From Candidatus Micrarchaeota archaeon (GTDB lineage Archaea; Micrarchaeota; Micrarchaeia; Norongarragalinales; SBBD01), in contig JBBSVW010000082.1 in assembly GCA_038046605.1 (NCBI GenBank), positions 1 through 17,578 on the forward strand: DNA of 17,578 nucleotides, read 5' to 3'. Position numbers and translations under genes: made by a program. The notes below the pieces were generated by a model. The model was given only the letters and a program-made list of their open reading frames with translations. It made no database searches and was not told the DNA's origin. Positions 4,709 through 17,578 of the stretch are shown here, in pieces (the first letter of the stretch is position 1; the number at the start of each line of letters is the position of its first letter).

Positions 4709-4783
4709 CGGGCCCAGTGGGATTCGAACCCACGACCTACAGCTTAGAAGGCTGTCGCTCTATCCAGGCTGAGCTACGGGCCC
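4709..4783 (-). tRNA. tRNA-Arg (TCT), intronless, no encoded CCA
   Basis: Reverse complement GGGCCCGTAGCTCAGCCTGGATAGAGCGACAGCCTTCTAAGCTGTAGGTCGTGGGTTCGAATCCCACTGGGCCCG folds into a full cloverleaf. Anticodon loop CTTCTAA, T-loop TTCGAAT. Confidence 0.97.
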
Positions 4784-13904: not shown

Positions 13905-13992
13905 AAGAATCGCAAGCCTAAGGCTGCGGCACTTTAAATAAGTAACTAAATCCCCTTAAATAAATTTGGGGGCATTAGGTAAAAGTGAAAAA

Positions 13993-15186
13993 ATGAAAAT
14001 AGCGATAATCTCGGATTGCCATTTTGGCTTCAATGAAGACGCCCTGCCGCAGGCACGGGAGGCGATGCTGCAAGCGCTTGAATTGGGCGCGGATGCACTG
14101 CTGCTTCCGGGGGACATTTACGATATACGCATCCCAAGGCAAGAAACGCTCCATGAAACAATCGGGCTCTATTCGGAAATTAGGGAAAGAAGCGAATCTG
14201 GCAAAAAGCAATATCCCAAAATGATTGAACTTGGGGATGATACGCAAAACACATTGGAAAATCAGGGAATTCCCGTGCTTGCCATCTGGGGCACGCACGA
14301 GAGGCGATCCAAGGGATTGACAAATGTAATACAGATAATGGATGCGGCGGGGCTTCTTGTAAGTTTCCATACGCGTAAAATTGTTTTGGAAAAAGATGGG
14401 GAGCGGATTTGCTTCCAGGGGCTTGGAGGAGTTCCGGAGGAATATTTTGGAAGGACCCTTAAGGTTGCCCGGTTTGCGCCCGAAAAAAACACCTACAATA
14501 TTTTCGTTTTCCACCAAAATCTTGCCGAATTAATGCCAGTTGAGATTGACGGCACGGTTGCCATGGCCGACCTTCCAGATGGCTTTGAGCTCTATGTGAA
14601 TGGGCATATCCATTGGAACCATGATTTGGATATCGGCGGAAGGCGCCTTTTGGTTTCCGGAAGCACGGTTGTCACCCAGATGAAAAAGAATGAGGAAAAA
14701 CCCAAAGGATTCTATTTTTTCGACACTAAAACGCAGGAGGCTAGATTCGTTACCATCCCCAGCCGGCCGTTTTATTTCAGGGAAATCAAATTCGAAAATG
14801 CAATGGCAAGCACGGTGGAAGGAAATCTCGATGACGCCTTATCCTCCCTGCTAAAACAGCCCCACCTTATGCAGCCAATGCTCAAGATCAAGATGAGCGG
14901 CACAATTGCAAAGGGGCAAACCCCCCTGCTTTCACTTGAAAAAATCATAGCCAAATATTCCGGCAATGCCCGCATTTATGTCGATAGGGATTTTGAAAGC
15001 TTTGAACTTAAGGATAAGATCGAAACATTGCGGCGCCTTCGGAGGGAAGGAAAAGGCGCAAAGGAGCTCGGAATTGAAATATTGAAGGACCGGCTAAAGG
15101 AGCGCGGCCTTGTTTTGAAGGATGCACATGATCTATTCGAAGCGCTTGCGGATGGGGAAATAGAGCTTGCCATGCAGCATCTGTAG
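13993..15186 (+). CDS. mre11: Mre11/SbcD-family DNA repair nuclease
   Basis: Phosphoesterase motifs SDCHFG, GDIYD, GTHE, FHQ and GHIH, plus SGST...EEKPKGF and a capping domain. Confidence 0.85.
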   Translation: MKIAIISDCHFGFNEDALPQAREAMLQALELGADALLLPGDIYDIRIPRQETLHETIGLYSEIRERSESGKKQYPKMIELGDDTQNTLENQGIPVLAIWGTHERRSKGLTNVIQIMDAAGLLVSFHTRKIVLEKDGERICFQGLGGVPEEYFGRTLKVARFAPEKNTYNIFVFHQNLAELMPVEIDGTVAMADLPDGFELYVNGHIHWNHDLDIGGRRLLVSGSTVVTQMKKNEEKPKGFYFFDTKTQEARFVTIPSRPFYFREIKFENAMASTVEGNLDDALSSLLKQPHLMQPMLKIKMSGTIAKGQTPLLSLEKIIAKYSGNARIYVDRDFESFELKDKIETLRRLRREGKGAKELGIEILKDRLKERGLVLKDAHDLFEALADGEIELAMQHL

Positions 15187-15319: not shown

Positions 15320-15730
15320 ATGGAACCCCAGCAAATAACAATTCGGCGCGTGGTGCGCCCGCAAAAGCGCAACCTTGAAGGCGAACTCGAATGGTTTTGC
15401 CAATCCCTTGGCATTTCACAGGATAGCGACGAGCTGGGCGCGGAAATACTCAAGGAGATATTGAGGGCGGAAAGCAAAGGAGGCATCATTCGGAGCATTT
15501 CAATCAGTAAAAAGATGCGCGTGACAAGGGGCGGGGCGGTTTACCACCTAAACAAGCTTATGGCAAGCGGCCTGATTGTCAGGAGGGGGCGCGATTATGA
15601 ATTGCGCGGCCAGAATTTATCCGATACAGTCGAAGAGATGGAGCAGGACATGAGGAGGTTTTTTAGGCAGATCCGCAGGATGGCGGATGAAATAGATTCC
15701 GAGCTTGGGATGAAAAACGAATTCGAGTGA
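15320..15730 (+). CDS. ArsR-like winged-HTH transcriptional regulator
   Basis: wHTH SISISKKMRVTRGGAVYHLNKLMASGLIVRRGRDYEL with a C-terminal coiled helix. Confidence 0.8.
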   Translation: MEPQQITIRRVVRPQKRNLEGELEWFCQSLGISQDSDELGAEILKEILRAESKGGIIRSISISKKMRVTRGGAVYHLNKLMASGLIVRRGRDYELRGQNLSDTVEEMEQDMRRFFRQIRRMADEIDSELGMKNEFE

Positions 15731-15735
15731 ATTTT

Positions 15736-16308
15736 ATGGAAAAGGAAAAATCGGCAAATGCCAATACGGATGGTGAAAATGCAAAGGAATTGGATAATGC
15801 AGCTAGCCAAAGCGGGCAAACCCCGCCCAATCGCCAAAATGAGGGGGATTATCATCGGCTTTATTTGGAGGCAAGGAAGAATTCCGACGAGCTTTTAACG
15901 CGCCTCAAATACATGCAGGCGGACTACGAGAATTTCAAGAAAAGGGCGCTTAAGGAAAAGCTCGAAATCATTGAGATCGCAAACGAATCGCTTTTGTCGG
16001 ATCTCCTTACAGTGCTTGATGAGATGGATGCCGCAATTTCACATCTGCCAAAGGACGCAGGGATGGATGGAATAGGCCTCGTCAGGCAAAACATGCTCAA
16101 AACGCTTGGCGAATACGGCTTGCAGCAGATGAAGGTCAAGGCCGGGGATGACTTCAACCCGGATGTATGCGAAGCAATAGGAACGGAAAATACGGCAGAT
16201 CAAAAAAACGAGGGGAAAATTTCGCTTGTTGCTCAAAGGGGGTATATGCTCAGGGGACTGGTTTTGAGGTTTGCAAAAGTGAAAGTCTACATGTTTGAAA
16301 AAGGATAG
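15736..16308 (+). CDS. grpE: Nucleotide exchange factor GrpE
   Basis: LKYMQADYENFKKR, LLTVLDEM, FNPDVCEAI and QRGYMLRGLVLRFAKVKV. GAGTGA RBS before the ATG at 15736 (alternative GTG at 15727). Confidence 0.95.
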   Translation: MEKEKSANANTDGENAKELDNAASQSGQTPPNRQNEGDYHRLYLEARKNSDELLTRLKYMQADYENFKKRALKEKLEIIEIANESLLSDLLTVLDEMDAAISHLPKDAGMDGIGLVRQNMLKTLGEYGLQQMKVKAGDDFNPDVCEAIGTENTADQKNEGKISLVAQRGYMLRGLVLRFAKVKVYMFEKG

Positions 16309-16315
16309 ATGATTC

Positions 16316-17245
16316 ATGGTAATTGAACTGACTGATCAAATGGAGAGGCTAAGGGGAGGCATTAAACACCTTCGGGGAGGGCATGATTATAGGCTAATTC
16401 TCAAAACCTTCGGAAAACCCGCTCTCAGGGATTTTTTCATGACACTTTACCCAAAATACGACATAACAACGGTGGAAAAAATCGTTGAAATTCCGGATTC
16501 AACTTTGGAACGATGGTTTCAAAAATTGGAGATTCCGTTTGAGCGTAGTCACATAACCTCTGAATCGATTCCCGCCAGTGCTGATTCTTCCACTATTGAG
16601 TACATTAACAACACTCCAAAAAAAGTAGTGGCCGTAAAAATCACGCCTGAATTAGCATATTTAATTGGATTCACATTGGGAGATGGCTCTGTACAAAAAT
16701 ACATGGTGGAGGTTTTTAATAAAGACAGGAAATTAAAGGATATTTTATTTAAAATCATGCAAAGCTACGGAAAAATAACGCAGGACGAAAGAGAGAATGG
16801 CCTATGGAGGCTTCGTCTGTCCTCAGGAAAAATAGCTAGTTTGATAAAAAAGAATAAACGAATTAGGGAGGATACGATAAAATACATATTTGCAGATGAA
16901 AAGCTGGCTGTAATGTTTATAGCGGCTTTTTGGGATGCAGAGGGAAGCGTTCTAAGGCAACGCAGCTATTTTCACGTGTACCTTTATAATTCGAATCTCA
17001 ACTTATTGAAATTGATCGGGAGCTTTTTGCATTCTAAAAAATTAGACTATTCCATCTTGAAATTGAATAATTCACGGAACAGGGTATATTTTCTGAATGG
17101 CAGGCAAGTGAAATCTAAAAAAACTCTTTATCGCCTGGGCATTCCGAAACGCAGTGTTTTAAGTTGGGCAAGGCAGTTTGGCGTTAATTTGAAGCATTCC
17201 AAAAAACAAGGGATGGTTAAGGAAATTTTATTGTCAGGTGATTGA
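16316..17245 (+). CDS. Free-standing LAGLIDADG homing endonuclease-like protein with N-terminal HTH
   Basis: Two LAGLIDADG helices, [12 protein letters not shown] and [13 protein letters not shown]-like [22 protein letters not shown]. No intein splice motifs seen. Visibly AT-richer than grpE and dnaK. Confidence 0.88.
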
Positions 17246-17247
17246 AT

Positions 17248-17578
17248 ATGAATAAAATACTAGGCGTGGACTTAGGCACTTCGAACAGTGCAGCTGCCGC
17301 AATGATGGGTGGAAAGCCCCAGATAATCCCCTCGGCCGAAGGGACAACCGCTGCGGGAAAGGCTTTCCCATCATTTGTTGCATTCACCAAGGAAGGGGAA
17401 GTGCTGGTTGGCGAACCGGCAAGAAGGCAGGCGGTAACCAACCCGGAAGGGACGGTTTACGCATCAAAACGCAAGAGGGGAACCGACCATGCGTACAAGA
17501 TTTTTGGGAAGGCATATACGCCCCAGAAAATTTCTGCATTCCTTTTGCAGAAATTATAGCGGGATGCTGAAATCTTCC
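17248..17578 (+). CDS. dnaK: Chaperone DnaK, N-terminal part, with in-frame TAG at 17557-17559 (sequence error or pseudogene)
   Basis: [41 protein letters not shown] and [13 protein letters not shown]. Homology continues past the TAG (RDAE). RBS AGGTGA. Confidence 0.9.

Follow-up and report, generated by a model that had tools for sequence, protein, structure and literature searches.

A free-standing LAGLIDADG homing endonuclease gene, probably an intronless homing element, between grpE and dnaK in a Micrarchaeota archaeon

The stretch of DNA analysed here (17,578 nt, hereafter the window) is the entire contig C82 (JBBSVW010000082.1) of a Candidatus Micrarchaeota archaeon (assembly GCA_038046605.1; genome G000, 1.64 Mb in 106 contigs and estimated to be ca. 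91% complete). Its 3' part carries, inside a heat-shock gene cluster, an open reading frame (ORF) that corresponds to a free-standing, two-motif LAGLIDADG homing endonuclease gene. This gene occupies positions 16316 to 17245 of the plus strand, runs from an ATG to a TGA and encodes 309 amino acids (aa). It is preceded on the same strand by grpE (15727-16308; 193 aa, Pfam GrpE with E 8.8e-33) and followed, again on the plus strand, by the 5' part of dnaK (17248-17578, with its ATG at 17248; HSP70 with E 4.1e-21), the remainder of which is found on contig C97. Only 7 nt separate the grpE stop from the ORF and 2 nt its TGA from the dnaK ATG, as an earlier sequence-only reading of the window had reported. 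The Shine-Dalgarno sequence of dnaK (AGGTGA, 17236-17241, plus strand) does lie, as that reading also had it, within the final codons of the endonuclease gene, 6 nt before the dnaK ATG. At the equivalent position, the remaining gene-bearing loci described below have a site of the GGAGG or GGTGA type.

The ORF, which is present as a single copy in the genome, had been described as richer in AT than its flanks, and this was confirmed at genome scale: its GC content is 38.2% against 46.8% for the genome (1.3 percentile of the 785 ORFs of at least 250 aa) and its third-position GC content is 40.3% against a long-ORF mean of 53.1% (3.1 percentile of the same ORFs). Most characterised archaeal LAGLIDADG enzymes are encoded in inteins or introns, and the fold matches of the product include the intein enzymes PI-SceI and PI-PfuI. 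That the ORF is such an intein- or intron-encoded endonuclease, or a part of a transposon or virus, is nevertheless very improbable. It has its own start and stop in a frame that differs from those of both grpE and dnaK, no Hint or intein Pfam match was detected in it, and a search for Rfam intron families between 15600 and 17578 at E up to 1 returned only a chance-level antisense match (E 0.69). No direct or inverted repeats flank the ORF, and viral contigs contained only distant LAGLIDADG proteins (26-33% identical over the longer matches). The search for longer or fused relatives of the endonuclease likewise found none, which is weak evidence. The absence of intein or intron boundaries proposed from the letters alone is therefore upheld.

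The domain model, the two acid-ending motif helices and the predicted fold all assign the product to the LAGLIDADG superfamily. PF14528 (LAGLIDADG_3) matches it in two stretches with 40.3 bits (cut-off 22.5). Motif 1 spans L113-G124 (16652-16687, plus strand; D123 codon at 16682-16684) and motif 2 spans L197-G210 (16904-16945, plus strand; E209 codon at 16940-16942). In an alignment of 32 family members, D123 (within LGDG), W206, D207, A208, E209 and G210 are invariant in all 32, so that the two motifs and the conservation of their acidic positions, as first claimed, stand confirmed; 29 columns are invariant overall and the mean column identity is 47%. A helix-turn-helix (HTH) region is located at the N-terminus (16457-16549, plus strand; ca. 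residues 48-78), with a conserved IPDSTLxxWF and near-invariant residues D61, S62, L64, W67 and F68 in the same alignment. The HTH proposed earlier agrees with an AlphaFold2 model built from the 32-member alignment (mean pLDDT 90), which contains helices between residues 7 and 70 (including 50-57 and 61-70), a three-stranded sheet (81-108) and a double alpha-beta-beta-alpha-beta-beta-alpha core. The corresponding sequence matches are weak (MerR_1, E 0.019, below the cut-off; an Lrp/AsnC-type regulator in the PDB, E 0.005). This region is presumed to be an additional DNA-binding module.

When the model was compared to the PDB with Foldseek, I-DmoI was the top match (E 9e-10, TM 0.68 normalised to the target) among 138 matches at E up to 0.001 that are led by LAGLIDADG enzymes, with I-Tsp061I, PI-SceI and PI-PfuI coming after I-DmoI. 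The best PDB sequence match of the family profile is PI-PfuI (1dq3, E 5.7e-5), in an alignment that covers motif 2 and the second domain, while I-DmoI is reached with E 0.02; a PDB search with the core domain only returned nothing useful. I-DmoI, like I-Tsp061I an archaeal monomeric two-motif LAGLIDADG enzyme, has the same fold with both motifs in one chain, an Asp closing motif 1 and a Glu closing motif 2. A PDB title names I-DmoI E117A, and we take D123 and E209 of the window protein to be equivalent to D21 and E117 of I-DmoI. Sequence identity between the two is just 17-19%. I-DmoI resides in an rRNA intron and lacks an N-terminal extension, whereas the window protein is free-standing, carries ca. 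108 extra N-terminal residues (the HTH and the three-stranded sheet) and is linked to a protein-coding gene. PI-PfuI and PI-SceI share the endonuclease fold, but the window gene lacks a Hint splicing domain and does not lie in frame within a host protein.

Another relative on the LAGLIDADG scaffold is WhiA, a universally distributed, domesticated bacterial regulator that has a C-terminal HTH and has lost the catalytic acids. The window protein also combines this scaffold with an HTH and gives weak matches to WhiA (PF14527, 22.9 bits for a cut-off of 23.2; PDB 3hyi, Foldseek rank 43). It differs in scoring 13 bits against TIGR00647 (cut-off 44.1), in the N-terminal position of its HTH (48-78), in the retention of Asp and Glu, and in its patchy distribution (see below).

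The window protein belongs to a hitherto undescribed family. Clustered public proteins were searched and gave 123 hits out of 1128 candidates. They include 115 cluster representatives (P0002-P0116) of 300-351 aa that are 45-55% identical to the window protein over at least 89% of the query. Where their source is named, they are labelled Woesearchaeota, Iainarchaeum/Diapherotrites, Micrarchaeota or Nanoarchaeia, and in databases they are called either "hypothetical" or "LAGLIDADG family homing endonuclease". In a pattern scan that took in 185,579 species genomes, 65 loci were obtained, 26 of them with close homologues (L009-L034). Locus L099 (genome G217) was left out of all locus counts, and genomes G217 and G067 enter only pooled tallies (including that of dnaK in 290 of 401 genomes and presumably that of the gene in 4 of 401, see below).

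The neighbourhoods of the homologues, whose examination had been advised, all give the same address. The gene is directly followed by dnaK in 26 of the 26 close-homologue loci and preceded by grpE in all 22 whose contig extends that far (22 of 26 in all). The distance from its stop to the dnaK start ranges from -47 to +14 nt in 25 loci and is +69 nt in L034, a decayed copy, while the distance from grpE to the gene varies from -53 to +521 nt. The three other positive genomes of the window's phylum (G076, G080 and G201) also have the gene next to dnaK, as do, by coordinates, 8 of the 9 positive genomes of a second phylum; the exception is G507, where gene and dnaK are on separate contigs. The copy number was one in the five genomes checked. 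More distant LAGLIDADG matches (L035 onward) are all located away from dnaK, and among them identities above 33% occur only in short, motif-sized matches. One of these, in a contig labelled Hadarchaeota (L035, 54-1170), is a 29%-identical relative with the HTH and two-motif layout, which is frameshifted into frames of 230 and 145 aa and is followed by an SMC/Rad50-like ATPase gene. Two close-homologue loci, L013 and L027, come from records titled as bacteria (Binatia and Acidoferrum). Their DnaK and endonuclease both nest inside archaeal clades, with L012/L019 and with L028/L030, respectively, and these contigs are therefore probably mis-binned.

While the site is constant, its occupation is rare, and the patchy presence at the grpE-dnaK junctions of relatives that intronless homing had been expected to leave was indeed found. 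In the window's order the gene occurs in 1 of 41 genomes, the window's own, and in its genus in 1 of 7, none of the six other species having it. Five of these six have grpE, and dnaK follows grpE directly in all five. A survey of the window's phylum by means of the family profile (E up to 1e-20) detected it in 4 of 401 sampled genomes (G000, G076, G080 and G201), dnaK being present in 290 of the 401. In the second phylum (that of L026, labelled Iainarchaeum), 9 of 215 genomes have the gene and 168 of the 215 have dnaK. On a DnaK tree of 87 rows, at least 14 changes between presence and absence are required. Empty grpE-dnaK sites were identified in five same-genus genomes and in three sets of control loci (35 + 28 + 26), and tblastn at E up to 1 found no endonuclease remnants in the 35 + 28 + 26 control loci. 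Apart from the window's own gene, the order yielded a single match, a LAGLIDADG stretch of 32% identity within an 818-aa open frame (L002, genome G009, contig C148, 685-1152), which may represent an intein in a host protein.

The genes around the ORF are native. In the DnaK tree the window protein (its C97 part) falls within its own genus (support 100) as sister to that of G001 (support 95, 88% identity), and G001 has an empty site. The window GrpE and those of the genus share 47-51% identity, just as the latter do among themselves, and the winged-helix protein and the Mre11-like neighbour encoded upstream (see below) diverge from the genus no more than its members do from each other. The heat-shock operon is therefore resident, and the 0.93-kb ORF, which is unusual in composition, is the sole addition to it.

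The endonuclease tree places the window protein on a long branch (1.1), apart from the same-phylum copies L027, L028 and L030. In approximately unbiased (AU) tests, for which the groups were picked after the trees had been seen, a grouping of the window protein with these three copies was not rejected (p 0.09), whereas the clade of L009 and L021 supported by DnaK was rejected by the endonuclease data (p 0.004), the DnaK of L021 being a long branch. A fair summary of the trees is that they suggest long vertical persistence plus occasional transfer.

A localised difference between gene-bearing and empty loci was found in the first codons of dnaK. The 5' end of dnaK was compared between 27 gene-bearing loci and 68 empty ones (5 from the window's genus, 35 from family f14 and 28 from the Iainarchaeum-type order). 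The controls were the 30 best matches to the N-terminus of the window's DnaK in each search; this choice biases them, if anything, toward the gene-bearing type. The first Gly codon is GGA in 3 of the 27 gene-bearing loci and in 51 of the 68 empty ones, Val (GTG) replaces Ile in 8 versus 3, the Asp codon is GAC in 17 versus 17, and the second Gly codon is GGA in 6 versus 44. Third-position GC over dnaK codons 0-5 is 0.61 in gene-bearing loci and 0.28 in empty ones, as compared to 0.40 and 0.45 over codons 6-44. Once the hypothesis had been stated, a third control set was retrieved, consisting of 26 empty loci from the order to which L009 (labelled Woesearchaeota) belongs. Its third-position GC is 0.24 over codons 0-5 and 0.19 beyond, while the values for the ten AT-rich gene-bearing loci are 0.58 and 0.21 (p 3.5e-4).

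The consensus of 94 empty alleles is GGA ATA GAT TTA GGA ACA. Over these 18 nt the mean number of mismatches to it is 5.41 in gene-bearing and 3.00 in empty alleles (p 1.7e-9); no gene-bearing allele has fewer than 3 mismatches, and 41 of the 94 empty ones have 2 or fewer. Four adjacent 18-nt windows displayed no difference between the two classes (p 0.57, 0.69, 0.13 and 0.76). Ten independent pairs on well-supported branches were taken from the DnaK tree of 87 rows, which had been built with the target codons excluded and 8 short rows dropped. Ca. 7 of these went in the predicted direction, 0.2 in the opposite one and 2.7 were ties (median sign-test p 0.016). The window version of the stretch (17263-17280, plus strand; GGC GTG GAC TTA GGC ACT, coding for G-V-D-L-G-T) has 6 mismatches to the empty consensus and is presumably a cleavage-resistant form. 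In the window DnaK, residues 8-100 track the genus and only the first 7 resemble gene-bearing alleles. A conversion tract was looked for in the window dnaK and had to be given up, since synonymous sites are saturated between these species and no tract is measurable.

The signature thus covers ca. 18 nt, at 15-35 nt from the insertion point; empty alleles are uniform over this stretch, and occupied ones are changed there in various ways. Such a pattern suggests a LAGLIDADG target with immunising or co-converted substitutions. The sequence-only reading had proposed the conserved grpE/dnaK junction as the target of a homing element. The comparison speaks for homing and places the putative target in the G-I-D-L-G-T codons of dnaK, ca. 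15 nt past the junction, instead of at the junction itself. Six gene-free loci, L111 (G222), L113 (G370), L145, L153, L164 and L168, display GGC/GGG GTG GAY (Gly-Val-Asp) in dnaK as gene-bearing alleles typically do; they may be footprints left by an earlier occupation, or may be resistant alleles.

Taken together, these observations make it likely that the ORF is a free-standing LAGLIDADG homing endonuclease gene, predicted to be active, that spreads by intronless homing. Text excerpts of PMC6083498 describe under this term an optional endonuclease gene that lies between two conserved genes and is thought to cut one of them in gene-free genomes; SegF and SegG of T4 and F-CphI of cyanophage S-PM2, which they mention, are GIY-YIG or Endo VII enzymes encoded in phage genomes. 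The window gene resembles these phage enzymes in being optional, in its position between grpE and dnaK and in the allele signature in dnaK. It differs in being a LAGLIDADG gene in the cellular chromosomes of small archaea, with cleavage as a predicted activity. No paper placing a LAGLIDADG gene between grpE and dnaK was found in a literature search that covered neither subscription journals nor supplements, and in excerpts of an archaeal genome paper (PMC3082918) the mentions of homing endonuclease, grpE and dnaK are unrelated. While homing endonucleases are a known kind of protein, the family described here is new in its site, lineage and domain architecture.

According to the proposed mechanism, the endonuclease gene would be transcribed with the heat-shock cluster, i.e. 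the small winged helix-turn-helix (wHTH) gene, grpE, the endonuclease gene and dnaK. The product, a monomeric two-domain enzyme aided by its N-terminal HTH, would recognise ca. 18-22 bp at the dnaK 5' end of gene-free alleles, namely the G-I-D-L-G-T codons in their consensus form, and would cut the gene-free allele at those codons. Repair off a gene-bearing allele would copy the gene into the grpE-dnaK gap, along with nearby substitutions that give resistance. As the last codons of the gene carry the dnaK ribosome-binding site, expression of dnaK would be kept. After fixation, copies would decay and get lost, which would produce the patchy pattern observed.

Patterns within two genera correspond to the stages that would be expected from such a homing cycle. 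In genus g62, an intact copy (G080, L030) coexists with a remnant (G634, with loci L034 and L116) and with empty sites in G346 (L115) and G398 (L097). The remnant in L034 encodes 160 aa, with the HTH and motif 1 kept and ca. residues 146-259, including motif 2, lost; its last ca. 150 nt, with the dnaK Shine-Dalgarno sequence, are retained in another frame. In genus g35, G076 has the gene, while G222 (L111) and G370 (L113) are without it yet share the unusual dnaK allele of G076 (GGC GTG GAT); the remaining loci read in this genus carry the common allele.

The remnant also bears on the earlier suggestion that the gene is made hard to delete by supplying the dnaK ribosome-binding site, for which the support is anecdotal, a single decayed copy having kept its 3' end. 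A rival reading takes the ORF for a dead-end relic: a former homing gene, now inactive or immobile in this lineage, that persists only because its 3' end holds the ribosome-binding site of dnaK and is seldom deleted precisely. The lack of a close donor (best match 53-55% identical), the long terminal branch (1.1) and the retention in L034 of the 3' end after loss of the middle would fit such a relic. It is judged improbable, given that the frame is open over 309 codons with all family-invariant residues present, including D123 and E209, and that stops or frameshifts would be expected at such an age, as in L034 and L035.

Several observations weigh against spread by homing. The endonuclease and DnaK trees broadly track taxonomy and two of the three AU tests do not reject their agreement (p 0.09 each), so that long vertical descent with many losses is possible. 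The closest sampled relative is just 53-55% identical, which leaves the gene without a known donor and would allow an old gain, and the species of the window's genus are themselves deeply diverged (GrpE ca. 50% identical). Contigs assembled from public sequencing runs gave neither a gene-free allele of this species nor a joint skipping the gene, which in contigs alone is uninformative; those from other studies hold only short grpE and dnaK pieces that carry no information on the endonuclease. The allele signature was initially spotted post hoc, GGA is kept at the first Gly codon in three gene-bearing loci, and 8 of the 94 empty loci have at least 6 mismatches. Moreover, the signature could instead mark an operator co-evolving with a DNA-binding protein, and a host function would also fit a family that is well conserved (mean column identity 47%) and intact in 25 of 26 copies.

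The last two points lead to the other proposal of the sequence-only reading, a domesticated LAGLIDADG DNA-binding protein that would act as an accessory regulator or cofactor of the grpE-dnaK operon, with the dnaK signature as its operator. Such a role would agree with a gene that is always in the operon and packed tightly against dnaK, that is strongly conserved over its whole length, HTH included, and in 25 of 26 copies intact, with broadly congruent trees (two of three AU tests non-significant) and with a signature that adjoins the gene. We nonetheless consider it unlikely. Among genomes that have dnaK, a regulator of this operon would be restricted to 4 of 290 in the window's phylum and 9 of 168 in the second, and in its own genus to one of seven genomes; both catalytic acids are invariant, one copy has decayed, and the cluster already contains another conserved candidate regulator, the wHTH protein. 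Gene-bearing alleles vary while empty alleles are uniform, and escape from a target therefore fits better than a conserved operator. Domestication is thus disfavoured by rarity, decay and the retained catalytic residues. An intronless homing element is supported by the constant site, the patchiness, the native dnaK beside a compositionally foreign ORF, the decayed copy and the 18-nt signature, with cleavage as the predicted step.

Free-standing homing endonucleases and intronless homing have been established mainly in phages. In the window and its relatives the same homing logic would operate in cellular archaeal chromosomes, with a LAGLIDADG enzyme at a fixed address by an essential chaperone gene in at least three phylum-level groups. 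The putative 18-nt target is concrete and open to test, and the gene could serve as a marker for DNA exchange and recombination in organisms not yet growable alone. The ca. 115 diverged natural enzymes with an extra N-terminal module could interest nuclease engineers. For annotation, this "hypothetical protein" of the dnaK operon calls for caution, as it is probably no chaperone component. More tentatively, and with the odds against it, the family might be viewed as a gene drive that occurs naturally in small-genome (DPANN-type) archaea and targets the G-I-D-L-G-T codons of the Hsp70 ATP-binding loop. As these codons are among the most conserved in any genome, such a drive could cross between phyla. 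Its position inside a heat-shock operon would restrict production of the nuclease largely to times of stress, which would couple homing to stress. If so, recurrent DNA exchange and homologous recombination would take place among these cells, and the family would provide new meganuclease scaffolds with an added HTH reading head.

Upstream of grpE, the local heat-shock cluster opens with a gene for a small winged-helix protein (15320-15730, plus strand; 136 aa), which overlaps the grpE start by 4 nt. Its matches to MarR_2, Lrs14 and HTH_45 are all below threshold, and no curated family was found above its cut-off. A homologue occurs beside grpE in 21 of the 26 gene-bearing loci, 33 of the 36 family-f14 loci and all five same-genus loci, which makes the protein a candidate heat-shock regulator in archaea of three phylum-level groups. 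This gene and grpE share a strand in the window's phylum but are divergently oriented in most other cases. Further upstream, a Mre11-like phosphoesterase gene (13966-15186, plus strand) is kept ahead of the heat-shock cluster across the genus. The only Rfam match in the window is a tRNA gene (4709-4783, minus strand).

The assembly of dnaK is broken over two contigs. Positions 1-1698 of C97 continue the gene as a stop-free frame of 565 aa and overlap the last ca. 105 nt of the window with ca. 5 differences, all near the end of C82; the same 5 differences occur in a public-run contig. Recoding of an in-frame TAG in dnaK (17557-17559, 20 nt from the contig end) was considered and rejected, since C97 has a sense codon at this position and the differences cluster at the contig end; the TAG is best read as contig-end noise or a strain variant. 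An origin of the ORF 3' end by fusion to an ancestral grpE stop, as raised by the resemblance of GGTGAtTGAATATG to the empty site of the sister genome, was likewise discarded, the same 3' end being conserved family-wide. Finally, public-run contigs from two other studies contain 231-261 nt of the window grpE (15700-16064) with zero differences, and the window organism, or a very close strain, may therefore occur elsewhere.

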